Assembly: GCA_964408705.1 (NCBI GenBank)
Contig: CAYPAI010000003.1
Location: forward strand, 5,382 to 69,381
From: Candidatus Woesearchaeota archaeon
GTDB lineage: Archaea > Nanobdellota > Nanobdellia > SCGC-AAA011-G17 > PNOQ01
Length of the DNA: 64,000 nt
Reading direction: 5' to 3'
Shown here: in pieces, positions 13,050 to 41,859 of the stretch
Numbering within the stretch: position 1 is the stretch's first letter
Layout of the letters: each line of letters starts with the position of its first letter
The notes under the pieces: model-generated
What the model was told of the DNA's origin: nothing
What the model saw: the letters and a program-made list of their open reading frames with translations, nothing else
The model's database searches: none
Made by a program: the position numbers and the translations under genes

Positions 13050-13058
13050 TTTTGATTA

Positions 13059-26942: not shown

Positions 26943-28427
26943 ATGATGGGTGCTTATACTAAAAAAGTGATAAGAGGTGCAACTTACTTATTTATCTTTT
27001 CAGTTTTAGCATCATTCATTTCTTATTTTACAAGGATTTATCTAGCTAGAAATCTCACTCTTGAAGAATTTGGTTTATTTTTTGCAGTTTTTTCTTTGTT
27101 TAATTTTTTGGTTATTTTTAAAGACCTAGGACTAGGTCAGGCCATGGTTAAATTTTTATCTGAATTTCAGGCTAATAATGAGTTTAATAAATCTAAGACT
27201 TCAATTTTTATCGTAACATCTATTCAATTGTCTTTAGCTTTTATAATATCTGCATTTATGATTTTTTTTGCAAAGTTTCTTAGTGAAAATTATTTTAAGA
27301 ATCCAGAATCTTTTTATCTAATCATTATTTTATCACTTTGGTTTTTCTTAAGTACTATTCAAGGAATTGTATTTCAAGTGTTTTATGGTTTAAAATATTT
27401 TTTTATTTTTTCACTAAAAGATTTTATTAAGAATTTTATTTTTATTTTATTACTTATTCTTTTATTTTCTTTAGGTTTCGGATTGTTTAGTCCTGCTCTT
27501 GCATGGTTGTTTACAACTATTTTACTTGCTTTATTTTTCTTTCCTTTAATGTTATCAAAATTTAATTTTTTTAAATATCGTTTAGTGAATCAATTTGAAA
27601 TTTCTAAAAAATTATTTTGGTTTGGAGTTCCTTTAATATTTTTAACTGCAGGTAGTTTGGTTATAGGGTATCTAGATACTTTGATGTTGACTTATTTTAG
27701 GAGTCTTGAAGAAGTTGGCATTTATAATGTAGTCTTGCCTTCTGCAATGCTTCTTATTTTTCTTGGGCGTTCTATTGCGCTTACGATCTTTCCAATAGGT
27801 TCCGAACTTTGGATAAAAAACCAAAAGAAAAAACTTTCTAATGGGTTAAGTTTAATGTTAAAGTATTCTTTTTTAGCTGTAATGCCTATAGCATTGTCTT
27901 TAATAATCTTCTCAGATTTATTTTTAAAAATATTTTTTGGTCCAGAGTATATTGCAGGAAGTTTATCTTTTAAAATACTATTAGTAGGAGTTATTTTCTA
28001 TATTATTGCACAAATAAATAATTCAATTATATCTTCGATAGGTATGCCTAAAAAAGTTACAAAAATTGTGTTGTGGGCAGCACTTCTGAATATTCTAGTT
28101 AATTTGATACTTATTCCTATTTTTGGAATTGTTGGAGCAGCTTTTGCCACTACTATGAGTTATATGTTGGTTTGTTTTTTAAGCATACTTGAAATAAGGA
28201 AAGTTTTTGATTTTAATCCACCTTGGAGCTCATGGATTAAGACACTATTTTCAGGAATATTATTTGTGTTATCTATTGAAGTTATGTCCAATCTATTTAA
28301 TTTTAATTTATGGTTAGAATTAATTGTTGTATTATTTGCTTCTATTCTTGTATACTTATTTGCATTATTTATTACTCGCGTTATAACATATTCTGAAATA
28401 AAAGGTCTTATTAAAAATATTATCTAA
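26943..28427 (+). CDS. Oligosaccharide flippase (Wzx / MOP superfamily polysaccharide biosynthesis protein)
   Basis: 494 aa, about 12-14 TM. The layout is typical of MOP flippases. Confidence 0.55.
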   Translation: MMGAYTKKVIRGATYLFIFSVLASFISYFTRIYLARNLTLEEFGLFFAVFSLFNFLVIFKDLGLGQAMVKFLSEFQANNEFNKSKTSIFIVTSIQLSLAFIISAFMIFFAKFLSENYFKNPESFYLIIILSLWFFLSTIQGIVFQVFYGLKYFFIFSLKDFIKNFIFILLLILLFSLGFGLFSPALAWLFTTILLALFFFPLMLSKFNFFKYRLVNQFEISKKLFWFGVPLIFLTAGSLVIGYLDTLMLTYFRSLEEVGIYNVVLPSAMLLIFLGRSIALTIFPIGSELWIKNQKKKLSNGLSLMLKYSFLAVMPIALSLIIFSDLFLKIFFGPEYIAGSLSFKILLVGVIFYIIAQINNSIISSIGMPKKVTKIVLWAALLNILVNLILIPIFGIVGAAFATTMSYMLVCFLSILEIRKVFDFNPPWSSWIKTLFSGILFVLSIEVMSNLFNFNLWLELIVVLFASILVYLFALFITRVITYSEIKGLIKNII

Positions 28428-29941
28428 AGGTTTATACTATCTATTGTTTCTTTTATCAAATTTTTAGTTTCGTCTGATTTTTTAATCTTTAAATCGTCCA
28501 TCAAATTTTCTATTACTTCTCCATCCATATCTGAGGGTATAGGTATTCCAAAATATGCTAGTGCTGTGGGAGTTATATTTAAAACATGAGTATTTATTTC
28601 TTTATTTTTTTTAACTTTATTTCCAAGTGCAATAAATATTCCATCTACATGGTGATCTGCTTGAATATGTTCATCATTTATTTCTGTTATTACTTTTTTT
28701 TCAATGTTATATCCTGTGTTTGACTTTACTGCTCCTTCTTCTGCAATAAAAACTATATCTGGTGCTTTCTCTAAGTAAGGACCATGATATAATTCCTCCC
28801 TAGTGTAGACTTCTAGTTTTATTTCTTTTTCCTTAAAGAATTTTTTTAAATCTTTCATTATTTTTTCCTTAGTCTCTACGTATTCTTCTTCAGAAACACT
28901 TCCTTCATTTTCTCTGCCTTTGAGATTTATGATTATTCTACCTTGTACTCCTGCAGAATAAGCTTTTGTTTTTTCCCAGTCTATTAAATTAGTTACATCT
29001 GTTTCTTTTTCATTTTTTATTATTGAGCCAATAAAGAATCTATATTTGTTTCTCACGTTTTTACTTATATATTTCATTAGTTTCAATTTTACTAATATTG
29101 AAACCATTGGATTAAATATTTTTTCATAGTTTTTTGAGTTTAATCCCAATTTTGCCAAAATACTGGGCTTTGCTTTCTTTTTTAAAGTTAAATATCCTTT
29201 TTCTTCTAACCAGTTGTTTATATTAAAATTTTTCTTTAGTTTTGTCATCCCATGATCTGAAACAATGATTAAACAAGTATCTTTATCTAATTTTTTTACA
29301 AATTTTTCTAATCTACTGTCTATTTTTTTAAGTGCAGTTTTTATAAATTCTTTATGATTCCACCTAAAGTGTAATATTGGATCATTTACATAAATGTTCA
29401 TAGATAATAAATTAAACTTTTTATTTTTTAGTATATAATCTAATTGATCAAATCTTAAGTCAAGAAGATCTAATAATCTTTGATTAAACATAGGGTTTCT
29501 TGAATTTAATCCTGCAGTTGTATCTTCTGGCCATGAGAAATTGAACCAATCTTTTCTTAAATGGTCTCCTTCACCAAAGCTTATTTCAGATCTGAAAGGA
29601 GAAGATAAAGGTATATTGATAAGTCCACATTTTAGATCTGATTCTTGAAGATATTCCCATAAAAATTTAGATTTTATATCGCTTGAGCATACATAATGGC
29701 CAGGTTTATAATTATTTATTGAACAAAAATCAAACACCCCATGTTTACCAGGGTTTTTACCTGTAAATATTGCTGGCCATGCTGTTGCTGTAATTGGTAA
29801 TATAACACTTCTTAGTTTTCCCCATGCTTTTTCTTTTTTTAGCTTATTAAAGAATTTTAAGTCGCCTGATTCGATTAAAGGATCTATTGCATTCCAAGTT
29901 GCCCCATCTAGGCCTAATATTATTAATTTTTTTTTATTCAT
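28424..29941 (-). CDS. Alkaline-phosphatase-superfamily protein (type I phosphodiesterase/nucleotide pyrophosphatase family)
   Basis: N-terminal LILGLDGATWNAID metal-binding motif, and VSDHGM. Confidence 0.5.
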   Translation of the reverse strand: MNKKKLIILGLDGATWNAIDPLIESGDLKFFNKLKKEKAWGKLRSVILPITATAWPAIFTGKNPGKHGVFDFCSINNYKPGHYVCSSDIKSKFLWEYLQESDLKCGLINIPLSSPFRSEISFGEGDHLRKDWFNFSWPEDTTAGLNSRNPMFNQRLLDLLDLRFDQLDYILKNKKFNLLSMNIYVNDPILHFRWNHKEFIKTALKKIDSRLEKFVKKLDKDTCLIIVSDHGMTKLKKNFNINNWLEEKGYLTLKKKAKPSILAKLGLNSKNYEKIFNPMVSILVKLKLMKYISKNVRNKYRFFIGSIIKNEKETDVTNLIDWEKTKAYSAGVQGRIIINLKGRENEGSVSEEEYVETKEKIMKDLKKFFKEKEIKLEVYTREELYHGPYLEKAPDIVFIAEEGAVKSNTGYNIEKKVITEINDEHIQADHHVDGIFIALGNKVKKNKEINTHVLNITPTALAYFGIPIPSDMDGEVIENLMDDLKIKKSDETKNLIKETIDSINL

Positions 29942-30947
29942 TTGTATATGGTTTGATCATTCTCATTATTTCAAGTATTGTTAAATGTTTGGAACTTCTT
30001 GAGTCATATTCAGTTTTTTGATTTTTTGATTCAAATCCTTTCTCAATCTCATGAGGATTAAAATGTCCAGGGTACAATACAAACATATCTTTTAAGTTTT
30101 TAACATTTCTTGATTCTTCTTGAGTTAGTAGTATTTCATGTAACTTTTCTCCTGGTCTTACTCCAGTTATTTTTATCCTTGACCTATTATTCTCTGAGGA
30201 GATGTTCATATTATTTATTACAGCTTTAGCTAGATCTATAATTCTTAAACTTTTCATTTTTAGTATAAAAATTTCTCTACCTTTAGAAATTTCTGCTGCC
30301 CTTAAGACAAGATTGGTTGCTTCTTTTATTGACATAAAAAATCTAGTCATATCTGTTGATGTTATTGTTATGGGTTTACCTTTTTTTATTTGATTTATGA
30401 AAGTAGGAATTACAGATCCGCTGGAGTTTAATACATTTCCAAATCTTACACAACAAAATTTTGTCTTGTAGGATCCGATATCATTTATTATTAATTTTTC
30501 ACTCAATAGTTTGGTTGCACCCATTGTGTTGATTGGATTTACTGCCTTATCTGTACTTATAAAAACTACTTTATCTATTTCTTCTTCTCTAGATATTTTA
30601 ATTACATTCTGAGTTCCTATCACGTTAGTTTTTACTGCTTCATAAGGATTATACTCACACAGAGGTACGTGTTTTAATGCAGCGCAATGGAATACTATAT
30701 TCGTATTTTTCATTGCAACTTTTAATCTCGTTTCATCTCTAATATCTCCTATTAAGTATCTTGCTTTTTTGAAATTATTTAATTCCTGCTGTATTTCGAA
30801 CATTTTTGCTTCGTCGTTATCAAATATTTTAATAAGTTTTGGTTTATGTTTTATTAATTGCCTAACTATCTCTGACCCTATTGATCCACATCCTCCTGTA
30901 ACAAGGATTTCTTTATTTTTGAATATATTTTTCTTTAAAAAATTCAT
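29934..30947 (-). CDS. UDP-GlcNAc 4,6-dehydratase (CapD/PseB/LegB-like)
   Basis: ILVTGGCGSIGSEI Rossmann. Polysacc_synt_2 pattern. Confidence 0.7.
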   Translation of the reverse strand: MNFLKKNIFKNKEILVTGGCGSIGSEIVRQLIKHKPKLIKIFDNDEAKMFEIQQELNNFKKARYLIGDIRDETRLKVAMKNTNIVFHCAALKHVPLCEYNPYEAVKTNVIGTQNVIKISREEEIDKVVFISTDKAVNPINTMGATKLLSEKLIINDIGSYKTKFCCVRFGNVLNSSGSVIPTFINQIKKGKPITITSTDMTRFFMSIKEATNLVLRAAEISKGREIFILKMKSLRIIDLAKAVINNMNISSENNRSRIKITGVRPGEKLHEILLTQEESRNVKNLKDMFVLYPGHFNPHEIEKGFESKNQKTEYDSRSSKHLTILEIMRMIKPYTNE

Positions 30948-32067
30948 TTATACTCTCAACCATATAGTTTAATTCTTCATTTTTTAGTTCTACATGCATA
31001 GGTAATGTTAAAACTTTGTTTGCAATATCTTCTGTGTTAGGTAGGTGTCCTTTAGCCAAATTTAGCTCTTTTTGATATAATTTACTTAAGTGAATTGGAT
31101 TAAAATATACTTTAGTCATTATTCCTTTTTGTTCTAAGAACTTTTGAAGGTTATTTCTTTGTTCATTATTTTTTAAAATAATTGTATACATCTGATATAC
31201 ATTAAAATGGTTTTTAGGTGCTATTGGTAAGATTATGTCATTTATCTTGGATAATTCTTGGTTAAGGTAACTTGCAATATCATTTCTTTTTTTTATTATC
31301 TTGTCTAATTTATTTAATTGACTTATTCCTAGTGCTGCATTTATTGTCGGTAGCCTAAAATTATATCCAATAGTAGTATATTCGTTTTCATTAATGTTAG
31401 AAAAATAATCTCCATGCTTTTCTTCAAATCTCCCATGGGATCTTATTAGTTTCATCTTTTCATATATTTTTTTAGACTTAGTTAGTGCAATTCCACCTTC
31501 ACCTGTTGTGATTATTTTATTTTGACAAAGACTAAATATTGAACTATCTCCCAATGTTCCAACGTGCTCTTCTTCAATTTTTGCACCAAATGCTTGTGCT
31601 GCATCTTCAATTAAAAGTATATTTTTTTCTTTTGCTAATTTTTTTAGTTTTATTGTGTCTCTTGCAGGACAACCCTGAAAATGTACTAATATTATTGCTT
31701 TTGTTTTATCACTTATTTTTCTTTTTACATCTTCAAAGTCTAAACCCAAAGTTTCTGTTTCAGATTCTGCAAAGATGGGTATACCTTTTGCAAGAAGTAC
31801 TGCATTAGATGTCGCTATAAATGTAAAAGAAGGCACTATAATCTCTTTTTCTTCTATATCATGAGCTAATAATAAAGTATGTAATGCTGAGGTTCCAGAG
31901 TTAAATGCAAGTACATTTTGCATGTCTAATAATTTTCCAATTTTATTTTCAAATTCTTTTATTTCTGGACCATCTGCCCAAAATGAACCCCTTCTTAGAA
32001 CTTTTTCTACTGAAGAAATGTCTTCTTCATCATAATGCATTTTGAATAAAGGTATTTTCCAGTTCAT
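30913..32067 (-). CDS. DegT/DnrJ/EryC1-family PLP-dependent sugar aminotransferase (PseC/LegC-like)
   Basis: AFNSGTSALHTLL, IVPSFTFIATSNAV, IEDAAQAFG, LCQNKIITTGEGG. Confidence 0.7.
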   Translation of the reverse strand: MNWKIPLFKMHYDEEDISSVEKVLRRGSFWADGPEIKEFENKIGKLLDMQNVLAFNSGTSALHTLLLAHDIEEKEIIVPSFTFIATSNAVLLAKGIPIFAESETETLGLDFEDVKRKISDKTKAIILVHFQGCPARDTIKLKKLAKEKNILLIEDAAQAFGAKIEEEHVGTLGDSSIFSLCQNKIITTGEGGIALTKSKKIYEKMKLIRSHGRFEEKHGDYFSNINENEYTTIGYNFRLPTINAALGISQLNKLDKIIKKRNDIASYLNQELSKINDIILPIAPKNHFNVYQMYTIILKNNEQRNNLQKFLEQKGIMTKVYFNPIHLSKLYQKELNLAKGHLPNTEDIANKVLTLPMHVELKNEELNYMVESINEFFKEKYIQK

Positions 32068-32070
32068 TAT

Positions 32071-33138
32071 TTATCTCCTATAATAAGGGAAAAAATTATC
32101 GTTTACTTTGCTTTTGTTATTCCCGTCTACCGAGTCTCTGAGAGCGCATAGTCTTTTATAAGTTTTATTATCGTGAATTATATTTGCAGTATAAAGCCTT
32201 CTCCTTAACTTAGAAAAACTTTTTTTGAACTTAAATAATGAATCACCATCATTCAATCCACCCCCCAAATGAAGGAACTTATTTTTATTTTTTTTACCCA
32301 TCTTTATTGCCTCCCAAATTATTAAATTATTTGGTGATAAGTTTAAGTATGTTTTATCTGAACCGGCAAAATGATAATTGATAAATTTATCCATCTGAAT
32401 AAATAATGCTGCAGATATCATTTGGCCATTATGTTCTGCTATTATTATTGAAATTTTGTTTTTTAAAAATTTTAGATGGTTTTCAAAAAATTTAATCGGG
32501 AATAAATATTTTAAATTTGCTTTATTTTTCTTCATAGTAGATAGATACAATTTTGTGAAATTTTTTAGGTCTTTCTTGTCTTTTGAAAATCTTATTTTAA
32601 CATTTTTTTTAATGGCTTTTCTAATTAAATTTCTAGTTTTTTTATTTAGCTCCATTAAAATATGTTCTTGGGTTAAGTCTACATATACTGTTTTATTTTG
32701 TTTTTTTAGTTTATATAATCTTGAGTATATCTTATGGTTTTCTATTAAAGGATGAAATCTTATGAAGCTTGTAACAATCCTTTTCTTCTTACATAAAGAG
32801 GAGTATTCTAATTTGAAATATTCTAATAATTTTTCTTTATTTTTTCCAAATTTAGATAAAGGTCCTGAATAACCATAAGGAGAGATCAAATCATAATACT
32901 TTTTTCCATTCAGGTTTATTTCCCTTTTAATCAAACTTAAAAGTATAAACTCATTTTTATTTCCAAAGAATAATAAGATTGGTTTTCCACAAAAGTTTTC
33001 ATCGATATGTTTGTTATAATTATCATTGTATATTTTTAAATATTCTGGTGTAAAATATACATCCTTATCTTTGATTTTAGAAAGAAGTTTATTCCATTCT
33101 TTAGTGTTTTCAATGTCAATTATTTTAGACTCAAACAT
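32071..33138 (-). CDS. FemAB-like / GNAT (Acetyltransf_6) acyltransferase
   Basis: C-terminal ...LHLGGG...LFKFKKSF, typical of the FemAB/BioF2-like acyltransferase family. Sits inside the nonulosonic acid cluster. Confidence 0.45.
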   Translation of the reverse strand: MFESKIIDIENTKEWNKLLSKIKDKDVYFTPEYLKIYNDNYNKHIDENFCGKPILLFFGNKNEFILLSLIKREINLNGKKYYDLISPYGYSGPLSKFGKNKEKLLEYFKLEYSSLCKKKRIVTSFIRFHPLIENHKIYSRLYKLKKQNKTVYVDLTQEHILMELNKKTRNLIRKAIKKNVKIRFSKDKKDLKNFTKLYLSTMKKNKANLKYLFPIKFFENHLKFLKNKISIIIAEHNGQMISAALFIQMDKFINYHFAGSDKTYLNLSPNNLIIWEAIKMGKKNKNKFLHLGGGLNDGDSLFKFKKSFSKLRRRLYTANIIHDNKTYKRLCALRDSVDGNNKSKVNDNFFPYYRR

Positions 33139-34186
33139 TTTTTAATATTATCTCCATAATTTTTTTTATATCTTTTTGAGAGTATCTTTGGTCAATAGGT
33201 ATTGTTAATATTGTTTTTGATATTTTCCAGCAGTTTTCGAATTCCTTACAGTTTATCTCTTCTGGAAGGGCCCAGTGAATAGGGGGGTATATTTTATTTT
33301 GGATTAATTTTTGTCTTATTTCATTTCTAACTTCATTAGACTGAAACAAAACTGGAAATCCTAAGGGGCATTCTTCATTAGTTAGATTAGTTATTACTGG
33401 TTTTAATTTATTAGTTCGATTTATTTGTGATAAGACGTAGTTATAATTTTTTTTTCTTTTTAGGTGGATCTCATTAAAATTAGTTCTTTCTATGATATAT
33501 TTTGATACTTTGGATATAGGTTTAGGTCTCCTATAGTTATTGATTAATTTTTCTTCTGATCTGATTATCAGTTTTCTTGCTAGTTTTTTAAAACCTACTA
33601 GTTTTAAGATTCCTGCATATAATCTTGTTTTATAAAATTTATTTGTATGTGTGTTTGGTAATATCTTTTTTTTAAAATCTCCAATTAAGAATGCCCCATC
33701 TGGGACTGGTAAAAACTTTCGATAACTATTGAAATTAAAATCACCATATTTAATATGGGAAGAGATAAATGATTGTACATTGTCTTCAACTAGTTTAATC
33801 TTTCTTTTTTCACAAACTTTCTTTATTTCTTTTATTTTTGGTTGAATTTTTCCGAAATAATTAATTAAAAAAAGTAATTTTATTGATTTATCTTTTAGTT
33901 TATTTTTAATATCTGTTAAATTTGGTTCCAAGTTATTATTAAGTTTATAGAATTTATAGCCTATATTATTTTTTTTTAATGGTTCCAGTATTGAGTCGCA
34001 TAAATATGAAGGGACTAAAACTTTTGATTTAAAAGTTATATTTTGAGATTTTATTATGTAATCTATACAATCCCTTCCATTAGATAATAATATCATTTTT
34101 GGATGGATATTTTTTATTTTTTTAGTAAAGATTGGAAGTTTTATCTTAAAATCTCCTCCAATCTCTTTTTTAAGATTAGTAATCAT
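33131..34186 (-). CDS. DegT-like fold-type-I enzyme (second putative sugar aminotransferase/dehydratase)
   Basis: VLVPSYLCDSI, KLVEDNVQSF and FNSYRKFLPVPDG resemble the DegT pattern loosely. Confidence 0.35.
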   Translation of the reverse strand: MITNLKKEIGGDFKIKLPIFTKKIKNIHPKMILLSNGRDCIDYIIKSQNITFKSKVLVPSYLCDSILEPLKKNNIGYKFYKLNNNLEPNLTDIKNKLKDKSIKLLFLINYFGKIQPKIKEIKKVCEKRKIKLVEDNVQSFISSHIKYGDFNFNSYRKFLPVPDGAFLIGDFKKKILPNTHTNKFYKTRLYAGILKLVGFKKLARKLIIRSEEKLINNYRRPKPISKVSKYIIERTNFNEIHLKRKKNYNYVLSQINRTNKLKPVITNLTNEECPLGFPVLFQSNEVRNEIRQKLIQNKIYPPIHWALPEEINCKEFENCWKISKTILTIPIDQRYSQKDIKKIMEIILKNV

Positions 34187-35300
34187 TTTTTTTATCTATT
34201 AATTTTTTGTTTAATTCTATTTTTTCTAAGATTTTACATATTTTTCCTTCAAAATTTTTTGACTTATAAGGATTTTTCAAATTTTCTAGTTTTTTTATAA
34301 AATTTTTATTTATTGCCTTTTGTATAGCTCTAGTTATTTCTTTTTGATTATGTTTAACATTTAATACATTATTTCCTTGTTCTCTGCCTCTTTGTCTATT
34401 TCCTATATTGATGCAAGGGGTCTTGAATTGAGGAGTTTCAACTATTCCAGAACTTGAGTTCCCAACTATAGCTGAACAATTCTTTAGTAGGCCCAAATAT
34501 GTGGATGGTTTCAAATTCTGAAAAGCTATAAAATTATCTTTTGAACTATACTCTTCAATTAAATCAATCATTTCTTTGGAGCCAGGTTCACCATTGGGAT
34601 AGATGATTATTGATTTTAGGTTAAGATTTTCTATTGACTTTAGGGTTTCTTCTAATTGTTTTTTAGATTTTTTTATTTCAGAAAAAACTGGGTGTTGCAA
34701 TACTAAGATAATCTCTTTGGATAAATCTATTTTTAAAATTTTTTCTAATTTTTCTTTTTTTGTTATTTTATTAAACAAAGGAGTTCCTATCATATGGATT
34801 CTCCACTTTTCCTCTCCCATCTTGATTATTCTTTGTTTGCTTTTTTTACTTCCTGGAAAGTGTATGTGGGAAAGTTTAGTTAATGCATGGCGAATTCTAT
34901 CATCTATAGATCCTGATATGTCTCCCCCTGAAATGTGGATTAAAGGAATATTAAGATGCATTCCTGCTATTGCAGTTGCTAATTGTTCATATCTATCTCC
35001 TTCTATCAAAATCAAATCTGGTTTTATTTCTTCAAAGGTTTTTGATAGTTCAATCAATAATTCTCCTGTAAAAACTGAAGTGTTTAATCCCTTATGGGAG
35101 ATGTTTACTGATCCTCTAATTTTTTTAAAAATAGGTAATTTTGTTTTTTCCAAAATTTTGATTCCAAGTTTATTAGTTAGATGTGTTCCAGTTACAATAA
35201 GTTGTAATTCTAGGTTCTTATTTTGATTTATCTGTTGTAAGGTGGGTAACATTAATCCAAACTCAGATCTTGATCCTGTAACATAAGCTATTTTTCTCAT
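34176..35300 (-). CDS. neuC: UDP-N-acetylglucosamine 2-epimerase, hydrolysing (NeuC/LegG-like)
   Basis: MRKIAYVTGSRSEFG, GDRYEQLATA, HISGGD. Confidence 0.7.
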   Translation of the reverse strand: MRKIAYVTGSRSEFGLMLPTLQQINQNKNLELQLIVTGTHLTNKLGIKILEKTKLPIFKKIRGSVNISHKGLNTSVFTGELLIELSKTFEEIKPDLILIEGDRYEQLATAIAGMHLNIPLIHISGGDISGSIDDRIRHALTKLSHIHFPGSKKSKQRIIKMGEEKWRIHMIGTPLFNKITKKEKLEKILKIDLSKEIILVLQHPVFSEIKKSKKQLEETLKSIENLNLKSIIIYPNGEPGSKEMIDLIEEYSSKDNFIAFQNLKPSTYLGLLKNCSAIVGNSSSGIVETPQFKTPCINIGNRQRGREQGNNVLNVKHNQKEITRAIQKAINKNFIKKLENLKNPYKSKNFEGKICKILEKIELNKKLIDKKNDY

Positions 35301-36379
35301 TCTAAATCTTCCATAACTATTATTTTATTTTTTTGTATACTTTTTTTGGTTTTTTTACCTAAAATTTTCTTAATTTCTTCTGGTCTGATACCCTTACCAT
35401 CTGCTCTTTTCATAGATGTGTTATTTTTAGTTAGTGTATCTCCTTTTTCTAAATTGAAGCTAGATACTATCGACTTTTGAAGGACTTTTTTATTTTTTAG
35501 TTCTGTCTTAGTAGGTATTTTATCATAAGAACCCCTTATTAGGTCATAGAATTTAGTTCCAATTTTGTTTTTTACATATTCTTTCTTGTTTTGTATTTTT
35601 TCTAATTTTCTAATTTCAAGCACTAATTCCTTTAATTGAGAAGAAGATAGTGCAAATTTATGATCTGGCCCATCTGCTAATGGATCATGGGTAAAGTGTT
35701 TTTCTATTATCTTTGCTCCGAGTGATACGGCTACAAGTGAACATTCAATGCCTAAAGTGTGGTCCGAGTATCCTACTATTCCTCCAGTTTTTTCCCTTAT
35801 AGTTAGCATTGAATTTAAATTTGCATCTTCATATTTAGTAGGATATTCACTTGTACAATGGAGAAAAATTAAGTTATTATTTATTTTACTAATTTTTTTT
35901 TGAATATCTGTTATTTGTTCAATATTGCTCATTCCAGTAGAAATAATTATTTTTTTTTGATAACTTGCAACATATTTTAAAAAACCTATGTTTGTTAATT
36001 CTCCTGAGCCAATTTTGATTATAGGTAAGTTTAGTTCTTCTATTAAAAATTTTGCACTTTTTTCTTCATCTGGAGTAGATAAAAATAATATATTTTTTTC
36101 TTCACAATATCTTTTTAATTTTTCAAAGTCTTTGTAAGTGAGTTCTAAGTTTTTTATCATATCAAATTGGCTTTCATTAGAACTTGTTCTTTCTTTTTGA
36201 TAATCTGCTTTTTTAGTGTTAGGAATAATTAACTCTTCAGTGATCCATGTTTGAAATTTAACTGCATCTGCTCCAGAGTCTTTAGCAATATCTACTAATA
36301 GTTTAGCTTTATCTAAACTACCGTCGTGACAAACTCCTGCTTCAGCAATAATAAAACAGCTATTATCTTCAGATAACAT
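35297..36379 (-). CDS. neuB: N-acylneuraminate (nonulosonic acid) synthase, NeuB/LegI-like with SAF domain
   Basis: CFIIAEAGVCHDGSLDKAKLLVDIAKDSGADAVKFQTW plus a C-terminal antifreeze-like domain. Confidence 0.8.
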   Translation of the reverse strand: MLSEDNSCFIIAEAGVCHDGSLDKAKLLVDIAKDSGADAVKFQTWITEELIIPNTKKADYQKERTSSNESQFDMIKNLELTYKDFEKLKRYCEEKNILFLSTPDEEKSAKFLIEELNLPIIKIGSGELTNIGFLKYVASYQKKIIISTGMSNIEQITDIQKKISKINNNLIFLHCTSEYPTKYEDANLNSMLTIREKTGGIVGYSDHTLGIECSLVAVSLGAKIIEKHFTHDPLADGPDHKFALSSSQLKELVLEIRKLEKIQNKKEYVKNKIGTKFYDLIRGSYDKIPTKTELKNKKVLQKSIVSSFNLEKGDTLTKNNTSMKRADGKGIRPEEIKKILGKKTKKSIQKNKIIVMEDLE

Positions 36380-36428
36380 AGTAGATTATACTCCCATTAT
36401 AGGCATTATAAGTCTTGTGAAAAAAAGA

Positions 36429-36986
36429 TTAAGAACTGTTATTTTGGTTGTATTCTTCTATTTCCATCCAGATTGAGTTTGGTGGAAACATAAACATAAG
36501 AAAGCTTTTTTCATAATATGTTTGCATTCTTTCTGATTTATTTATTAATTTTTTAATTAAATTTATTGGAAAATATTTATCAAAGTTTAAATTAAACCAT
36601 ATCTTATTTATTTTTAGGTTATAGTCTCTATTTATCCAATCATTCTTCTTTTTTCTTCTCTTGTCTAAATTTCTTAAATCAGTTATAGAGTATCCCATTG
36701 AAGAGATATCCTTTTCAAATATTACTGTCGACCTATAAATCAAAGGTGTGAAGTTTATTATTACTTTTTGTCCAATCCTACATAGTTCTTTCAAACTTGG
36801 TATGATCTCAGAAGTTTTTATATATGGTGTTACGCTTTTGCAGTATACCACACTAAACTCTTTATTTTTGAAAGGTTGTAGTTTAGGTAGAGGGGGTACA
36901 ACTTTATCAGGATTTACTTCTTTAGTTATATCTACATTTAAATATTCTTTTAATTTTTCTTTCCCGCATCCATAATTAATCTTCAT
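36429..36986 (-). CDS. Small class-I SAM methyltransferase-like protein
   Basis: INYGCGKEKLKEYLNVDI resembles Methyltransf_11/23 motif I. Confidence 0.3.
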   Translation of the reverse strand: MKINYGCGKEKLKEYLNVDITKEVNPDKVVPPLPKLQPFKNKEFSVVYCKSVTPYIKTSEIIPSLKELCRIGQKVIINFTPLIYRSTVIFEKDISSMGYSITDLRNLDKRRKKKNDWINRDYNLKINKIWFNLNFDKYFPINLIKKLINKSERMQTYYEKSFLMFMFPPNSIWMEIEEYNQNNSS

Positions 36987-38299
36987 TTTTTCTCTCTGAA
37001 TACAGGTCTTATTGAATCTCCTGTGAGGTGTTTTTTTATGTTTTCATCTTTCATTAAACATTTCATTGAAACCATGGCTTCACCATATATCTTTAATGCT
37101 AAATCTATGTCTTTTTCATTATGGGCGTAGCATGGTGCATGGTATAATCCTGCCAAAAGTCCCCTTTTCATACATTCTTGCTGAAATAAACTTTTAAACT
37201 CAAGATTTTCGATATCTAAATCATTGCTGTCCACTTCTATATCTGTCCAAGGAGCATATCCTTCGCACCAAAAATAATTTTTCAAGTTTAATTCTTCTGA
37301 TTTTTTGTTAAATCCGTCCTTGAGTTTAGAACCCATATGCCATATATGATCTATTATGTTATTTTTTTTAATTAAATCTATACATTTTATTGCTCCAGCT
37401 AATGATGCGCATTCTCCTCCAAAAGTTGATGAAAAAAATACTCCATCGAAAGTAAAATTATCCATTAGTTCAGCCTTTCCAACTAATGCAGATATCGGCA
37501 TCCCATTACCTATTGCTTTTCCAAATGTTGCTAAGTCTGGAGTTACGTTAAAATATTTTTGTGCACCCCCTAAACTAAATCTAAATCCAGTTATAATTTC
37601 ATCAAATATATATATTGCACCATGTTTGTGTGTCAATTCTTTTGATTTTTGTAAGAAATTATCTTTGGGTTCAGAAAGCTGTACTGGTTCCAATATTACT
37701 GCGGCTATCTCATTTGGATGTTCTCTAAATAGTTTTTTTAAAGATTCTAAGTTATTGTACTCAAATTTTAAAGTTAATTCTCTTATCTCATTTGGTATCC
37801 CTTTTTTCCTGTTCGTAGTCCCTATAAACCAATCATGAAATCCATGATATCCTCCGACTGCTATTTTTTTTCTTCCAGTTACTGCTCTTGCTAATCTTAT
37901 TGCCATAGTTGTTACATCTGATCCATTTTTTGCAAATTTAACTCTTTCAGCACAAGGAATATTTTCAATTAGTTTTTTTGCAGCCTCATTTTCTATAGGG
38001 CTTGGCATTGGAAAAAGTAATCCTTTTTTTAACTGATTAGTTATTGCTTTGTTAAATTCTTCATTATTATATCCTAAAATTGCAGGAAATCCTCCTGGTG
38101 CTAAATCTAGGAATTTATTCCCATCTACATCCCAGACATAACAACCCTCTCCCCTTTCTAAAAATTTAGGAGATGAGTTTGATACGTATTGAGTAGATCC
38201 ATGGCTTAAGGTATGGCACTGTGCAGGGATCGTAGTTTTTGCTTCAGAAAATATTTCTTCAGATTTTTTGTAATTATAATTTTTTAAATATTCATCCAT
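36983..38299 (-). CDS. Class-III PLP aminotransferase (glutamate-1-semialdehyde aminomutase-like)
   Basis: IFDEIITGFR; the PLP lysine region TFGKAIGNG. Confidence 0.65.
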   Translation of the reverse strand: MDEYLKNYNYKKSEEIFSEAKTTIPAQCHTLSHGSTQYVSNSSPKFLERGEGCYVWDVDGNKFLDLAPGGFPAILGYNNEEFNKAITNQLKKGLLFPMPSPIENEAAKKLIENIPCAERVKFAKNGSDVTTMAIRLARAVTGRKKIAVGGYHGFHDWFIGTTNRKKGIPNEIRELTLKFEYNNLESLKKLFREHPNEIAAVILEPVQLSEPKDNFLQKSKELTHKHGAIYIFDEIITGFRFSLGGAQKYFNVTPDLATFGKAIGNGMPISALVGKAELMDNFTFDGVFFSSTFGGECASLAGAIKCIDLIKKNNIIDHIWHMGSKLKDGFNKKSEELNLKNYFWCEGYAPWTDIEVDSNDLDIENLEFKSLFQQECMKRGLLAGLYHAPCYAHNEKDIDLALKIYGEAMVSMKCLMKDENIKKHLTGDSIRPVFREKK

Positions 38300-39026
38300 C
38301 TTGAGTTTCCTCCTTCATAATTAGTTCTGCTAACTTGAATTGAATAATATCATCTATTTCTATACTTCTTTTTTTTGGCATCAAAACTATTTTTGTTTTT
38401 AAGTGACTGTTTTCCCCATATGGATTAAATATTTTTGTGTTTGGGTCAAATAAGGTGTTATAAGTTATAGCATATACACCACCATTTATTATTAATTTAT
38501 TAAACTTATCATCTTGTCTTCTACTGTTTAATTTTTCTGTGTTTTCATATGGCTCAATATATCCATCTAATTTTTTAACCATTATGTCTGAGTTATCTAT
38601 TTCAAAAGGTGTAACTCCTACTACTGTGTTGACATCCTCTTTTTTTATTTCTTTAATTGCATTTTCAATATCTTCAATACTTCTTAGTGGGCTTGTCGGT
38701 TCTAATAAAATTATATACTCATAATGTTCCCCATTTTTTTCAAGGAATTTAGTTGCATGTCTTACTACTTCCATTGATGATGCACTATCTGTAGCTAAGT
38801 GTTCTGGCCTAATAAATGGTACTTCTGCACCATATTTTTTAGATATTTCTGCAATTTCCAAGTCATCTGTTGATACTATAGTTTTGTCTATTGATCTACA
38901 TTTGAGGGATTTTTCTATAGTATGGGCTATAAGTGGTTTTTTATTAAACTTTTTAATGTTTTTTCTAGGAATTCCTTTTGATCCGCCCCTTGCAGGTATT
39001 ACTGCTAATACTTTATTTTTTTCCAT
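38292..39026 (-). CDS. neuA: CMP-nonulosonic acid synthetase (acylneuraminate cytidylyltransferase, NeuA/LegF-like)
   Basis: VLAVIPARGGSKGIPRKNIKKFNKKPLIAHTI. Confidence 0.75.
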   Translation of the reverse strand: MEKNKVLAVIPARGGSKGIPRKNIKKFNKKPLIAHTIEKSLKCRSIDKTIVSTDDLEIAEISKKYGAEVPFIRPEHLATDSASSMEVVRHATKFLEKNGEHYEYIILLEPTSPLRSIEDIENAIKEIKKEDVNTVVGVTPFEIDNSDIMVKKLDGYIEPYENTEKLNSRRQDDKFNKLIINGGVYAITYNTLFDPNTKIFNPYGENSHLKTKIVLMPKKRSIEIDDIIQFKLAELIMKEETQDG

Positions 39027-40020
39027 TTTTTACTGATATTTGTTTTTTTTCTTTAGAACTTTCTTCAATTAGTTCTAAAATTTTTAGATTATAAAGATCT
39101 TCTTCTAAAGGATAAGGATATTTTGTTTTATTGTTTAGTGCAGAAATAAAACTTTTCATTTCTTCAATGTAGGGTTCTTCCTTATGGATGTATCCTTTTT
39201 CAATAGTTCCAGTTTCTTCACTATACTTTTTCCATTTTTTGTCTTTAGTTGTATAAACTTTGACTTGATTTTCTTTTTTATCCCATATGATTGTTCCTTT
39301 TTCCCCAATTATCTTTAATGATCTTTCAGGAATTCTTGAAATAACATCAACTATGATATTTCCTAAGGTATGTTCAAATCTTAAACTTATATTATATGTG
39401 TCCTCATAGTTTATATCTAGTGTTGAAAATTTACCTTTCATACAGTTTAAACTGTATATTTTTCCAAAAATCCAAGTTAGCCAAGTAAGTTCTCCAGGTA
39501 TTATTTCCCTACAGCCTCCAACTTCTTTATCTGACATGAAAAATTCATTAAAATTTTCCCAAGGGTGCCAATCTGGAAGATACTGTCCAACATGATAATT
39601 AAATGAGGAAACATTTCCTATTGTTTTTTTGTCCATTATCTGTTTAATCTTTTTAATTGATTCTAAGTTCCTCATATCATGTGATGCTGCAGCAAGTATA
39701 TTTTTTTCTTTTGCTAATTTAACAACTTTGTCTAATCCATTATTGATTATATTTAGTTCTGTAAAGAAAGGTTTATTTGCTTCTAATGATTTTTTTGCAT
39801 ACTCTGAATGATGTTGAGGAGGTGTAGATATAATTACAGCATCAGGGTCTTTACTCATGGCTTTTTGAAAATTATCAAATGTTTTTATCCCCATGCTCTC
39901 TACTTCCTTACGCCTATCTTCTCTTATATCAAATCCAATTATGTTGTTTTGTTTTAAGAATTTTAAATTTCTTATTCTTCTCTTTCCCATAGATCCTAAT
40001 CCTGCTATTAGAAATTTCAT
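39013..40020 (-). CDS. Gfo/Idh/MocA-family NAD(P) oxidoreductase
   Basis: MKFLIAGLGSMGKRRIRNL. Length 335 aa. Confidence 0.6.
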   Translation of the reverse strand: MKFLIAGLGSMGKRRIRNLKFLKQNNIIGFDIREDRRKEVESMGIKTFDNFQKAMSKDPDAVIISTPPQHHSEYAKKSLEANKPFFTELNIINNGLDKVVKLAKEKNILAAASHDMRNLESIKKIKQIMDKKTIGNVSSFNYHVGQYLPDWHPWENFNEFFMSDKEVGGCREIIPGELTWLTWIFGKIYSLNCMKGKFSTLDINYEDTYNISLRFEHTLGNIIVDVISRIPERSLKIIGEKGTIIWDKKENQVKVYTTKDKKWKKYSEETGTIEKGYIHKEEPYIEEMKSFISALNNKTKYPYPLEEDLYNLKILELIEESSKEKKQISVKNGKK

Positions 40021-40268
40021 AGTTTTACCTCTATAATTTGGTTTAGTTCTATTACTAGTTTTTCTTTTTGTTCATTAGACAGACCATGGGTCTCCATAGC
40101 TTCACCAAGTGTTTCTTTCCAGCTTCTCCTTCTACACATTGAACAGTAAAGGCCATACCTTCCCATGATCTTGCTTAAAATTTCATTGTCTGTAGATAAT
40201 ATTTTTTCTATAGGTGTATTTTTGTTTATGTTACTAGTATTTTCTTTTTTTATTTCTTTATCTTTCAT
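40017..40268 (-). CDS. DUF1858-like small protein (hybrid-cluster-associated redox-disulfide domain)
   Basis: GLYCSMCRRRSWKETLGEAMETHGL...LVIELNQI matches the DUF1858 pattern (C..C...TLEEA...HG). Confidence 0.35.
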   Translation of the reverse strand: MKDKEIKKENTSNINKNTPIEKILSTDNEILSKIMGRYGLYCSMCRRRSWKETLGEAMETHGLSNEQKEKLVIELNQIIEVKL

Positions 40269-41859
40269 AGTTTTTTATTATGTCCTTTATTTCCTTTATG
40301 ATCCTAGTTGTTGTCTTTCCATCTAATTTATAGCAATATTTTTTTATAAATTCCTTATTCTCCTTGTTTAATTTCTCTTTATATCTTTTATTAAATAGAA
40401 TTTTTTTGCTTTCTTTGTATAATTCTTCTGGTTTTTTAATTTTAGGGATTCCTTTGCTGTTTTTGTGAAAAACTCCATCCTTATCTATCATCTCACATGG
40501 ATAAATATCTATAAGTACTACTGGTTTTTTTAGAATACTAGCTTCCCATATTACTGAAGAGTAAAATGTTATTAACATATCTGAGTTTTTGATTAAAGAG
40601 TATAGGTGTTTTTTTCCTAGTTTTGCCTTTTTTATCTTGAAGTTTGTTAAATTTTTATTTTTAATTATTTTCGAGTATTCTACTATATTTTTTTCAAGAG
40701 GATGTGGTTTTATGATTATGTCATATCCCTCTATTTTTGATAATTTTTCTAGATATTTAGATATGTGTTTGAAGTATTTATCTTTTGAAATTACGTTTTC
40801 TTCAACCATAGGAGAGGTGCTGAATAAGATATATTTTTTCTTCTTTTTTTTATCTTCTGTTTTTGAAAATCTTATGAGTTTATTGTTAAAAATACTTCCA
40901 ACTACTCTTATTTGGTTTTTATTTGCACCTTTAGCTATGAACATTTTTTTTTGTAATTCGCCTGCTGTAAGAATGTGATGTGTATTTGGTAAATCCCATC
41001 TATATCCTGTAAGTCCGATTCCGTGAGAGATAGTTATACTTGGAATATTTAATTTATCTGAGGAGTATACTAGACACCTATCAGTTATATTATTTGGGGC
41101 ATAGAGGATTGATCCTTTAGTATTATTAATTTTTAATATTTTTTTGAAAGTTTCATAGTATAATATGGTAATAAATATCATTTCTTTTGAAAAAAAGAAG
41201 TTAAATGAATCATGATATATGTTAAATATTTGTTTATTTAATCCAGAAAATCTTATTTTTTTATTAACTATTTTCCAGTTATTAGATATTATTTTAGAAG
41301 CTAATTTAGCTTTTTTAATTTCTTTTAAGCCAACAAAACTGTTTAATAAATTTTTATGCTTTAATATGGAAAAGGAAATTTTTTCAGATAAGGGACTGAT
41401 TATGACCATATTTTTTTTTAAAGTTTTTTCCTTATCTATCAAGTTTAATACTTCTTCTATTCTGTCTATTTTATGTTTATGCTTGGTGAAAGATATTGCA
41501 TTAGTGTGTATTTGAAATAAGAGGTTTGAGTTCATATTTTTATTTAATCTTTTTTCTGTTAGTTTAGATAGTATTATTTTTCCAATTTCATTAAATAAAA
41601 TTCCTTTCCTTCTTAAATAATTTTTTAATCTTTTTCTTTTTGAATGTTTTTTTCTAATTAGTTTTATAATTGTAGAATCAAAATTATTAAAACCAGGGGG
41701 TAACATATTTCTTGCAAATCTTCTCCTATAGAAATTATCCCAAATAGAGTATCCATCATGTTTGAAATATTCTGAGAATTTAATTTCTCCGATTTTCTTG
41801 GTGGAAAGTTTATCAAAAAAATCTTCTAATTTACTGTATAATTCCTTTTTTAATTGCAT
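40258..41859 (-). CDS. CDP-glycerol glycerophosphotransferase-like (TagB/TagF family) putative phospho-alcohol transferase
   Basis: Basic 533-aa protein. DIIIKPHPLEK resembles the KPHP catalytic-His motif of the Glyphos_transf family. The call rests on one motif. Confidence 0.35.
   Translation of the reverse strand: MQLKKELYSKLEDFFDKLSTKKIGEIKFSEYFKHDGYSIWDNFYRRRFARNMLPPGFNNFDSTIIKLIRKKHSKRKRLKNYLRRKGILFNEIGKIILSKLTEKRLNKNMNSNLLFQIHTNAISFTKHKHKIDRIEEVLNLIDKEKTLKKNMVIISPLSEKISFSILKHKNLLNSFVGLKEIKKAKLASKIISNNWKIVNKKIRFSGLNKQIFNIYHDSFNFFFSKEMIFITILYYETFKKILKINNTKGSILYAPNNITDRCLVYSSDKLNIPSITISHGIGLTGYRWDLPNTHHILTAGELQKKMFIAKGANKNQIRVVGSIFNNKLIRFSKTEDKKKKKKYILFSTSPMVEENVISKDKYFKHISKYLEKLSKIEGYDIIIKPHPLEKNIVEYSKIIKNKNLTNFKIKKAKLGKKHLYSLIKNSDMLITFYSSVIWEASILKKPVVLIDIYPCEMIDKDGVFHKNSKGIPKIKKPEELYKESKKILFNKRYKEKLNKENKEFIKKYCYKLDGKTTTRIIKEIKDIIKNYER

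Follow-up and report, generated by a model that had tools for sequence, protein, structure and literature searches.

The window analysed here is a 64,000-nt stretch of DNA that encodes PCNA, diphthamide synthase, AglB/STT3, AMP phosphorylase, and type III RuBisCO, and is therefore archaeal; the host is marine and probably belongs to the DPANN. A previous sequence-only reading had described ten co-oriented, overlapping ORFs at 29934-40020 as a nonulosonic acid pathway, and all ten were recovered at these coordinates on the minus strand, with every family assignment upheld in searches of Pfam and NCBIfam (Table 1). Adjacent genes in this range overlap by 4-35 nt, the only exceptions being two gaps, of 3 nt and 49 nt; the co-orientation and most of the overlaps thus stood, but the extent did not, as the co-oriented and mostly overlapping run comprises 15 ORFs at 28424-44262. 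The additions are a Phosphodiest-family gene, which overlaps the dehydratase gene by 8 nt and is not in the version of the cluster on another archaeal contig (L008), and, upstream at 40017..44262 with overlaps of 1-29 nt, an 83-aa ORF, a TagB-like GT-B protein, and two ORFs lacking a Pfam match above the cut-off. The TagB-like protein, a candidate nonulosonate transferase, belongs to the same operon, although it lies outside the range first noted; the clusters of L008 and of the Bathyarchaeota locus L092 also have upstream genes with this Pfam signature, and a TagB domain is present in both the pseudaminic (Pse) and legionaminic (Leg) acid transferases of T. forsythia (PMC5420450). The sulfotransferase and phosphonate genes mentioned in the earlier reading are both present in the window.

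Table 1. Coordinates and family evidence for the 15 ORFs of the co-oriented run
Position	Strand	Assignment	Family evidence
28424..29941	-	Phosphodiest (alkaline-phosphatase superfamily) gene	PF01663, E 1e-37
29934..30947	-	UDP-GlcNAc 4,6-dehydratase, short soluble form	Polysacc_synt_2, E 4e-110
30913..32067	-	DegT-family sugar 4-aminotransferase (PglE/LegC role)	DegT, E 3e-101
32071..33138	-	Fem-family (double-GNAT) transferase (Fem)	FemAB/Acetyltransf_6
33131..34186	-	Divergent DegT-fold PLP enzyme (PLPx), Fem partner	Weak DegT, E 7e-7
34176..35300	-	Hydrolysing UDP-sugar 2-epimerase (NeuC/LegG)	TIGR03568 NeuC_NnaA; Epimerase_2, E 4e-76
35297..36379	-	Nonulosonate synthase (NeuB/LegI type) with SAF domain	NeuB, E 2e-84
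36429..36986	-	Small divergent class I SAM methyltransferase-like protein, 185 aa	Methyltransf_11 matches of homologues
36983..38299	-	Class III (GSA-aminomutase-like) aminotransferase	Aminotran_3, E 2e-50
38292..39026	-	CMP-nonulosonate synthetase (NeuA/LegF type)	CTP_transf_3, E 4e-27
39013..40020	-	Gfo/Idh/MocA NAD(P) oxidoreductase (Gfo), 335 aa	Three Gfo/Idh/MocA domains
40017-40268	-	83-aa ORF	Sub-threshold DUF1858 match only
40258..41859	-	GT-B/TagB-like protein, candidate nonulosonate transferase	Epimerase_2 and Glyphos_transf matches
41831-43060	-	ORF of the upstream overlapping run	No match above Pfam cut-off
43060-44262	-	ORF	No match above Pfam cut-off; sub-threshold NTP_transf_2 match only

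By their families, the proteins cover all steps to a CMP-activated di-amino nonulosonate, which bears out the earlier reading of a complete pathway in an archaeon. The 2-epimerase scored 396 bits on TIGR03568, well over the curated cut-off of 235.9, and the synthase scored 370 bits on NeuB_NnaB (below the TIGR03569 cut-off of 399.65) versus 229 bits on PseI and 18.5 bits on the DAHP synthase model. It is a NeuB, and the outcome that the earlier reading had named as refuting, a homologue within the KDO-8-P or DAHP synthases, did not occur. Its best PDB match is SpsE, and its KIGSGE motif is that of Neisseria meningitidis NeuB, whereas the PseI controls carry KIASFE. The active-site motif of the dehydratase, STDKAVNPINTMGATK, has the pattern of the long PglF-like enzymes, with Met, in comparison to LYGATK in true PseB controls and AMGISK in CapE-like enzymes; its PDB matches are Pen, CapE, FlaA1, and PglF, and by overall score PglF comes slightly behind Pen, CapE, and PseB. 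Its stereochemical outcome is a tentative assignment from one motif and a weak neighbour-joining tree. The DegT 4-aminotransferase is 48% identical to the DegT enzyme of L092, a Leg-type cluster, and the top PDB matches of the cytidylyltransferase are the CMP-Neu5Ac synthetases 6IFD and 1EYR. Given the NeuC score over cut-off, the Neu/Leg-type synthase motif, and the PglF-type dehydratase motif, the route is best described as Leg-type.

Where a canonical pathway has an N-acetyltransferase, the window has Fem and PLPx. A scan of window ORFs of at least 110 aa yielded no acetyltransferase of the hexapeptide (PglD/LegH) or PseH type, and Fem sits at the position that the hexapeptide acetyltransferase occupies in L092; it fills the slot of the missing enzyme rather than being extra. 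A profile of the Fem family matched FemX at E 7e-18, with the catalytic F304-K305 of FemX aligned to an invariant Phe-Lys of the family. In a fold search with the Fem model (pLDDT 92.8), the first 18 matches were all aminoacyl-tRNA-dependent enzymes (TM 0.49-0.73), including FemX, FemA, MprF-type synthases, and Sba18/Sbb17, the last of these bound to the amino-sugar acceptor streptothrisamine. We propose from these sequence and model comparisons that Fem may carry out an aminoacyl-tRNA-dependent N-acylation of the 4-amino sugar. The fold and the catalytic Phe-Lys, together with the occupation of the acetyltransferase slot by Fem and PLPx, therefore make an amino-acid-derived N7 acyl group likely, which agrees with the earlier suggestion of an unusual N-acyl modification.

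PLPx, the second of the two DegT-like enzymes previously noted, was likewise confirmed. In addition to its weak family match, its profile matches sugar aminotransferases, its model (pLDDT 94.7) has Foldseek TM scores of 0.65-0.71 to DegT enzymes, and neither of the PLP-binding residues, Asp135 and Lys157, varies among 40 homologues; sequence and model together thus identify it as a true DegT-fold enzyme. Its gene lies directly upstream of the Fem gene in 35 of 82 Fem loci.

Within the same Leg pathway, Fem could instead be a GNAT that uses acyl-CoA to acetylate the 4-amine, giving Leg5Ac7Ac, with PLPx redundant or unrelated. Acetyltransf_6 was also matched in Pfam, 'GNAT family N-acetyltransferase' is among the database names, and CoA-using tandem GNATs do appear further down the fold search. 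We nevertheless regard this as unlikely: those CoA-dependent GNATs rank below the aminoacyl-tRNA-dependent matches with TM < 0.5, the catalytic Phe-Lys of FemX is invariant in the family, and genes suited to a free alpha-amine (PLPx, a RimJ/L-type GNAT, and an Fmt-like formyltransferase) are tightly clustered with Fem, which argues against acetyl, a substituent that requires none of them.

The arrangement is not due to chance, as the block recurs on other archaeal contigs (L008/L009 and L010, 41-56% identity) and its core is kept, without the PLP enzyme, in L019. The gene order of L092 (TagB-like, Gfo, class III aminotransferase, NeuB, NeuC, hexapeptide acetyltransferase, DegT, dehydratase) is that of the window except for the hexapeptide acetyltransferase, which stands where the window has PLPx and Fem; six proteins common to both are 38-51% identical, and the TagB-like proteins 22%. 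Across the 82 Fem loci, a DegT gene and a PglC-like transferase were each found in 63, a PglF-like dehydratase in 38, and hexapeptide acetyltransferases in only 7 by a crude repeat-pattern scan.

In most of the loci where it occurs, the dehydratase/DegT/Fem/PLPx module stands without NeuB or NeuC, so a separate sugar is possible in the window too: NeuC, NeuB, and NeuA would produce CMP-Neu5Ac from UDP-GlcNAc, and the module a UDP-linked, aminoacylated bacillosamine-type hexose for a glycan. About 95% of the examined Fem loci lack NeuB or NeuC, the module is paired with a PglC-like transferase in such loci, and HMM scores and motifs of NeuB and NeuC do not separate Leg from Neu5Ac synthesis. 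We judge two products to be improbable all the same, since one arrangement is found in at least four divergent lineages: NeuB-NeuC directly beside an acyltransferase (Fem in the window, L008, and L019; the hexapeptide acetyltransferase in L092), then DegT, then the dehydratase. L010 also retains NeuB-NeuC-PLPx-Fem up to its contig end, the window has an 11-nt overlap between its NeuC and PLPx genes, the layout of L092 is that of a textbook Leg cluster with the acetyltransferase in the same slot, and there is no PglC-like initiating transferase in the window. The earlier wording, "legionaminic or pseudaminic", holds for its first half; a pseudaminic acid pathway (PseB, PseC, acyltransferase, hydrolase, PseI, PseF) is highly improbable, as PseB, PseC, and PseF are the top NCBIfam matches of the dehydratase (309 bits; cut-off 407.75), the DegT enzyme (288 bits; also below cut-off on LegC, at 232), and the cytidylyltransferase (154 bits) but these Pse scores all fall far below the curated cut-offs, true PseB, PseC, and PseI controls from loci L090 and L091 reach 487-538 bits compared to 229-309 for the window proteins, PseG and PseH were not found in the gene set and a NeuC-type epimerase was, and the synthase and dehydratase have Gly and Met in place of the Pse-type Phe and PseB Tyr.

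The sequence-only reading had counted the class III aminotransferase and Gfo among extra tailoring enzymes. Neither is a lineage-specific addition: many archaeal and bacterial clusters for Leg or Pse contain the same block of Gfo, cytidylyltransferase, and class III aminotransferase. Our literature search found no paper giving this block a function. Gfo shares 43-55% identity with its positional counterparts in L008, L092, and L093. The class III aminotransferase scored 422 bits on PRK06209, below its cut-off, and appears functionally tied to the cytidylyltransferase: many of its homologues carry a CTP_transf_3 fusion, and in P0137, a close relative, the cytidylyltransferase portion of the fusion shares 55% identity with the window cytidylyltransferase. 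The 185-aa protein had no direct match in Pfam or NCBIfam, and its designation as methyltransferase-like was confirmed through relatives only; of its 86 homologues, 35 were scanned and 31 matched Methyltransf_11, it retains the motif residues G6, C7, G8, D19, and D27, and it is 26% identical over its full length to a syntenic Methyltransf_11 gene in L008.

In outline, then, the cluster is real and ordinary; what is unusual is a Fem-type transferase and a divergent PLP enzyme instead of an N-acetyltransferase. We favor, with a probability of roughly 0.62, an operon that produces a CMP-activated Leg-type nonulosonate via the UDP-linked (bacillosamine) route, with an N7 substituent other than acetyl. 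UDP-GlcNAc would be converted to the UDP-4-keto-6-deoxy sugar by the PglF-type dehydratase and aminated at C4 by the DegT enzyme, and the new 4-amine would be acylated by Fem, most likely with an amino acid from aminoacyl-tRNA, whose free alpha-amine PLPx could then subject to epimerisation, transamination, or elimination. NeuC would remove UDP and epimerise C2, NeuB would carry out the PEP condensation, and the NeuA-type enzyme would make the CMP-sugar, which the upstream TagB-like protein would probably transfer to a glycan; the neighbouring flippase would flip this glycan, and AglB may attach it. For the remaining genes we can only guess among at least two models: Gfo, the class III aminotransferase, and the cytidylyltransferase might supply a hexosamine precursor in a PtmF/PtmA-like manner, or might replace a nonulosonate hydroxyl with an amine before activation in a KdnB/KdnA-like manner, the small methyltransferase then methylating an amine or hydroxyl.

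Gfo is possibly PtmF-like. In bacterial Leg clusters the gene for PtmF, a ~326-aa oxidoreductase, lies next to legF and ptmE (PMC4481668), a size and position comparable to those of the window Gfo beside the cytidylyltransferase, and Gfo is 43% identical to that of the actinobacterial Leg cluster L093, which has a PtmE-like gene. In the Campylobacter-type system, however, the partner is the SDR-type PtmA rather than a class III aminotransferase, a PtmE-like nucleotidyltransferase is present that the window operon lacks, and the dehydratase is of LegB type, whereas that of the window belongs to Polysacc_synt_2, as do the UDP-GlcNAc enzymes PseB, PglF, and CapE. In the KdnB/KdnA system of Shewanella (Kdo8N), CMP activation is preceded by the conversion of a hydroxyl of the free ulosonic acid to an amine by a dehydrogenase and an aminotransferase (PDB 5K8B), a logic that would account for the fusion of class III aminotransferases to cytidylyltransferases; KdnA is nonetheless DegT-type and KdnB an Fe-ADH, and no tri-amino nonulosonate was found in our literature search.

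The likeness of Fem to FemX of Weissella viridescens and to the Sba18/Sbb17/Orf11-type enzymes of streptothricin-like antibiotics lies in the double-GNAT fold (TM 0.62-0.73) and the catalytic Phe-Lys, at only 13-17% identity. The acceptors of the antibiotic enzymes include an amino sugar, and the aminoacylation by Orf11 is of an amino-sugar intermediate, which provides a precedent for the chemistry proposed here; Fem would differ in its acceptor (UDP-4-amino-4,6-dideoxy-HexNAc), its role in glycan biosynthesis, and its archaeal host.

The window shares with the UDP-linked Leg pathway (PglF/PglE/PglD-type, NeuC/LegG, NeuB/LegI, NeuA/LegF) an adjacent dehydratase, DegT enzyme, 2-epimerase, synthase, and CMP-synthetase, and differs in having neither a hexapeptide (PglD/LegH/NeuD) acetyltransferase nor a formyltransferase; L092 is the canonical version of this pathway in the window gene order. 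An archaeal example is Halorubrum sp. PV6, whose product is 5-N-formyl-Leg and whose cluster as listed lacks genes for Fem, a class III aminotransferase, and Gfo (PMC6137143); it shares with the window an archaeal host, and AglB is encoded nearby in the window. The predicted product is of the same kind as Leg5Ac7AcAla of Vibrio vulnificus CMCP6, which is cited in PMC7371886 as bearing an (N-acetyl)alanyl group at N7. The window has no GNAT for capping the amino acid; the natural occurrence of an alanyl-bearing legionaminic acid, as cited there, supports an aminoacyl-type N7 product.

The ten minus-strand open reading frames (ORFs) at 29934-40020 were present exactly as the sequence-only reading had described them, and their families were confirmed with Pfam and NCBIfam models (see table). 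Judged by these family assignments and by synteny, its interpretation of the run as a nonulosonate pathway was essentially right: the genes probably form a legionaminic (Leg)-type CMP-nonulosonate operon in an archaeon, a variant of a known pathway. Neighboring genes overlapped by 4-35 nt, with the exception of two gaps of 3 and 49 nt, and the overlapping run continued past the ten genes on both sides, reaching 44262 at its upstream end; the unit thus comprises about 15 genes over about 16 kb. Its upstream members include a 533-aa TagB/Glyphos_transf-like GT-B protein, an 83-aa ORF, and two proteins without a family match above the Pfam cut-off. The downstream Phosphodiest gene, a type I phosphodiesterase/nucleotide pyrophosphatase of the alkaline-phosphatase superfamily, is missing from the otherwise syntenic cluster of another archaeal locus, L008; nucleotide-sugar hydrolysis and phospho- or phosphono-group transfer are candidate roles.

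Features of the window, with positions, strands where recorded, and supporting matches
Feature	Position	Strand	Match or remark
AMP phosphorylase (archaeal AMP-salvage trio)	16464-17936		
Type III RuBisCO (AMP-salvage trio)	20218-21618		
IF-2B-family protein (AMP-salvage trio)	22252-23055		
Phosphodiest-family gene, downstream of the ten genes	28424-29941	-	8-nt overlap with dehydratase gene
Polysacc_synt_2 dehydratase	29934-30947	-	E 4e-110
DegT aminotransferase	30913-32067	-	DegT E 3e-101
FemAB/Acetyltransf_6 protein (Fem)	32071-33138	-	FemAB E 3e-15
PLPx	33131-34186	-	weak and partial DegT match, E 7e-7
NeuC	34176-35300	-	TIGR03568, 396 bits (cut-off 235.9)
NeuB + SAF	35297-36379	-	E 2e-84
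185-aa ORF	36429-36986	-	no direct match
Class III aminotransferase	36983-38299	-	PRK06209, 422 bits
CTP_transf_3 cytidylyltransferase	38292-39026	-	E 4e-27
Gfo/Idh/MocA oxidoreductase (Gfo)	39013-40020	-	E 2e-12
TagB/Glyphos_transf-like GT-B protein, upstream	40258-41859		
Fe-ADH (phosphonate set)	45328-46449	-	
TPP enzyme resembling phosphonopyruvate decarboxylase (phosphonate set)	46451-47623	-	
PEP mutase with N-terminal cytidylyltransferase-like domain (phosphonate set)	47575-48873	-	
CDP-alcohol phosphatidyltransferase, beside phosphonate set	48969-49631	+	
PMT_2-family (dolichyl-phosphate-mannose-type) glycosyltransferase	55684-57375		
AglB/STT3	59100-61658		

No acetyltransferase of the hexapeptide (PglD/LegH/NeuD) or PseH type was found among the scanned window ORFs of at least 110 aa. 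In the Bathyarchaeota Leg-type cluster L092/L094 the order is a TagB-like protein, then Gfo, class III aminotransferase, NeuB, NeuC, hexapeptide acetyltransferase (136 aa), DegT aminotransferase, and dehydratase; the window genes follow this same order, with 38-51% identity for six common proteins and 22% for the TagB-like protein, and the slot of the L092 acetyltransferase corresponds to the position of the divergent PLP enzyme PLPx and the FemX-like protein Fem. The main rival explanation divides the operon into halves with separate sugar products; it is disfavored by this conserved synteny. The comparison with L092 supports, at the level of sequence, a reading in which the whole block would serve one pathway and Fem would be the enzyme that N-acylates the 4-amino sugar.

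A pseudaminic (Pse) product was excluded by several features. On the PseB, PseC, and PseI models (cut-offs 407.75, 424, and 340), the dehydratase, DegT aminotransferase, and synthase reached 309, 288, and 229 bits, whereas the true Pse enzymes of two control loci (L090 and L091, originally fetched for another reason) scored 487-538 bits on the same models. Neither a PseG UDP-sugar hydrolase nor a PseH GNAT was found in the operon or the window with Pfam and NCBIfam, and the place of PseG is taken by a NeuC-type epimerase that scored above its cut-off, giving the operon the hydrolysing NDP-sugar 2-epimerase (NeuC/LegG) of the pathway. The best model for the synthase was NeuB_NnaB (370 bits, just below the cut-off of 399.65), and its motif KIGSGE is the same as that of Neisseria meningitidis NeuB, the PseI controls reading KIASFE. 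The Gly/Phe discriminator between Leg and Pse synthases (PMC7371886) held on our own PseI controls; the published "position 184" rule for the same distinction was wrong on these controls and was dropped. The dehydratase is certainly a member of the Polysacc_synt_2 family, in which overall similarity and a neighbor-joining tree did not separate retaining from inverting types; its motif, STDKAVNPINTMGATK, agrees with that of the long PglF-like enzymes (STDKAVNPTNIMGATK) and not with the CapE-like (STDKAAYPINAMGISK) or PseB (...LYGATK) controls. The DegT aminotransferase is 48% identical to that of the canonically arranged cluster L092. Taken with the dehydratase and aminotransferase, the evidence against Pse points to a UDP-linked Leg route, although NeuB and NeuC alone would fit Leg or Neu5Ac synthesis equally. 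The cytidylyltransferase was assigned as the activating enzyme because CMP-Neu5Ac synthetases were its best PDB matches by sequence. The NCBIfam model scores ruled out reading NeuB as a KDO-8-P or DAHP synthase.

The proposed acyltransferase resembles enzymes that use aminoacyl-tRNA. A family profile built from 24 Fem sequences matched the FemX proteins of Weissella (E 7e-18) and Staphylococcus aureus together with a peptide synthase that depends on aminoacyl-tRNA, and all 24 members carry an invariant Phe-Lys pair aligned with FemX F304-K305, the lysine of which has a catalytic role (PMC12945691). The AlphaFold model of Fem (pLDDT 92.8) has a double-GNAT fold, and a fold search returned FemX first (TM 0.63-0.73), followed by Sba18/Sbb17 with bound streptothrisamine, which contains an amino sugar, and then by FemA and by the aminoacyl-lipid synthases of the MprF type; tandem GNATs that use acyl-CoA ranked lower (TM <0.5). 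From profile and model, Fem is thus predicted to be, probably, an aminoacyl-tRNA-dependent transferase. Literature searches for Fem genes in nonulosonate pathways and for nonulosonates in DPANN archaea returned nothing specific.

The direct Pfam DegT match of PLPx was partial (29.3 bits, cut-off 19.8), and its family profile matched sugar aminotransferases including QdtB and ColD. Two PLP-binding residues, Asp135 and Lys157, were invariant across 40 homologues, and the structural model (pLDDT 94.7) aligned by Foldseek with DegT-family structures at TM 0.65-0.71, with identities of just 10-18%. On its modeled structure PLPx is a genuine DegT-fold enzyme of fold type I, and we read it as a DegT-fold PLP enzyme without earlier description. 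That it might be a decayed pseudogene was rejected, the fold and catalytic residues being intact and the family conserved. PLPx was present in 43 of 82 Fem loci, directly upstream of Fem in 35, and is regarded as accessory because Fem also occurs without it; it may act on the alpha-amine of the residue added by Fem, through any of several reaction types.

The Fem family has at least 720 members, and its gene neighborhoods were counted in 82 loci, mostly from Bacillota. A DegT gene and a PglC-like phosphoglycosyl transferase each lay near Fem in 63 of these loci, a GT4 glycosyltransferase in 51, a PglF-like dehydratase in 38, and a hexapeptide-repeat acetyltransferase, by a crude repeat-pattern count, in 7; the Fem module would therefore be a general substitute for PglD in pathways of the bacillosamine type. 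In the bacterial loci L011-L089, from Bacillota and other bacteria, the PLPx-Fem pair was observed in eps/pgl-like settings with a PglF-like dehydratase, DegT, and a PglC-like transferase, usually accompanied by a RimJ/L-type GNAT or ATP-grasp ligases (L006, 8372-12768, is an example of the bacterial pair). NeuB and NeuC accompanied the module in only a few archaeal loci: L008/L009, L010 (Woesearchaeota), and L019 (Methanoregula). Genes tightly adjoining Fem encoded ATP-grasp ligases in 22 loci (PLPx being present in 19 of them), a RimJ/L-type GNAT in 12, and an Fmt-like formyltransferase in 7 that all lack PLPx. A free amine or carboxylate is a possible substrate for all of these neighbors, which fits an aminoacyl group that Fem supplies and that is capped, extended, or remodeled afterwards. 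Gene content in the bacterial loci implies a family of putative bacillosamine sugars with aminoacyl or peptidyl substituents; we found no publication that describes them. Cross-matching of three homologue lists by the length of the longest contig suggests that at least six lineages carry both a class III aminotransferase and PLPx, several of them with Fem.

The presence of the Fem and PLPx module in place of an acetyltransferase predicts an aminoacyl-derived group at N7, for which Leg5Ac7AcAla is a natural precedent (cited in PMC7371886). The most far-reaching version of this reading, to which we would give a probability of roughly 40%, is that a DPANN-type archaeon attaches the N7 amino acid of Leg with aminoacyl-tRNA and Fem, that PLPx remodels it, and that the same module has gone unrecognized as the substitute for PglD at hundreds of bacterial loci for bacillosamine-type polysaccharides. 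If true, it would connect the translation machinery directly with the biosynthesis of nucleotide sugars and nonulosonates in both domains. From the cluster together with about 80 bacterial loci, the candidate N-acylating enzyme for 4-amino-4,6-dideoxy-hexosamines is a transferase of the Fem type that probably depends on tRNA. Such an activity would account for the making of aminoacyl-substituted bacillosamines and legionaminic acids, and the module, often partnered with the new DegT-fold PLPx, would help predict glycan chemistry from genomes. To our knowledge, nonulosonic acids have been chemically shown in very few archaea, and a complete, conserved pathway in Woesearchaeota-like genomes therefore widens their range; the enzymology of Fem-type N-acylation is the more useful point.

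We infer that the host is DPANN/Woesearchaeota-like. The window (G+C ~28%) is archaeal, with genes for AMP phosphorylase, type III RuBisCO, PCNA, diphthamide synthase, an AglB/STT3 oligosaccharyltransferase, and an eRF1 domain; marine metagenome contigs carry identical genes, Woesearchaeota MAGs were the nearest named relatives for three cluster proteins, and the top match in a scan of GTDB representatives was a Woesearchaeota MAG (41% identity). Within the AMP-salvage trio, the IF-2B-family protein is probably a ribose-1,5-bisphosphate isomerase, and a HAD hydrolase lies between its gene and that of RuBisCO. A run of plus-strand ORFs at 5607-15693, including proteins of 1379 aa (6470-10609) and 690 aa (13059-15131), had no family match in the libraries scanned and may encode surface or secreted proteins of the host lineage. 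The operon is part of a glycan island that also encodes a flippase, a UDP-glucose dehydrogenase, a number of GT2 and GT4 enzymes, and both the sulfotransferase and the phosphonate genes that had been claimed from sequence. The phosphonate set and the adjacent phosphatidyltransferase suggest that a glycan or lipid may receive a cytidylyl-activated phosphonate as its head group. The PMT_2 gene lies near AglB/STT3, a GT2, and a Methyltransf_11 gene (55684-61658), so that both lipid-linked glycan transfer systems are encoded beside the operon.

Three genes had been proposed as extra tailoring functions. For the 185-aa ORF, labeled methyltransferase-like, no Pfam or NCBIfam model matched directly even at E 10; the label is fairly supported through relatives, the activity being uncertain. 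It has 86 relatives, and Methyltransf_11 matched 31 of 35 that were scanned; in the ORF itself, motif I (GCG) and two acidic residues (D19 and D27) are retained and the consensus VLEH motif is absent. L008 has two methyltransferase genes, and the syntenic one is 26% identical to the ORF. Gfo and the class III aminotransferase are not tailoring genes peculiar to this lineage, since the oxidoreductase, cytidylyltransferase, and class III aminotransferase block also occurs in bacterial and archaeal clusters of both the Leg and the Pse type; its genes are therefore conserved and pathway-associated. The oxidoreductase of the block is a Gfo in a Scalindua Pse cluster (L091, 7155-10290) and an aldo-keto reductase in a second Pse cluster (L090, 9001-11070); the block recurred as well in Bathyarchaeota (L092) and, alongside PglD-like and PtmE-like genes, in an actinobacterial Leg cluster (L093, 6217-9293). 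In L008, an extra DHDPS-family (N-acetylneuraminate-lyase-like) gene lies between Gfo and the cytidylyltransferase (2451-3356). A second outcome of this work is thus that the widespread block is flagged as a conserved module of Leg and Pse clusters.

We found no published function for this block, and our literature searches on the class III aminotransferase in nonulosonate clusters yielded only a gene-table mention for the Legionella serogroup 6 LPS locus, where it adjoins the cytidylyltransferase. The aminotransferase has thousands of relatives, many with a fused CTP_transf_3 domain; the fused part shares 55% identity with the window cytidylyltransferase in one close relative (P0137), and in bacterial P0163 it is a different, SpsF-like cytidylyltransferase. 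In a Vibrio Pse cluster, an SpsF-like cytidylyltransferase is fused to an aldo-keto reductase (PMC7371886). Two models may be considered. The block could dehydrogenate and transaminate the free nonulosonate before CMP activation, as in Kdo8N formation, which would explain the aminotransferase-cytidylyltransferase fusions. It could instead supply a precursor in the manner of PtmF and PtmA. The PDB and NCBIfam matches of Gfo were too weak to point to a substrate; PtmF is a 326-aa oxidoreductase of bacterial Leg clusters (PMC4481668), and the features that liken the window Gfo to it are size, annotation, and gene neighborhood.
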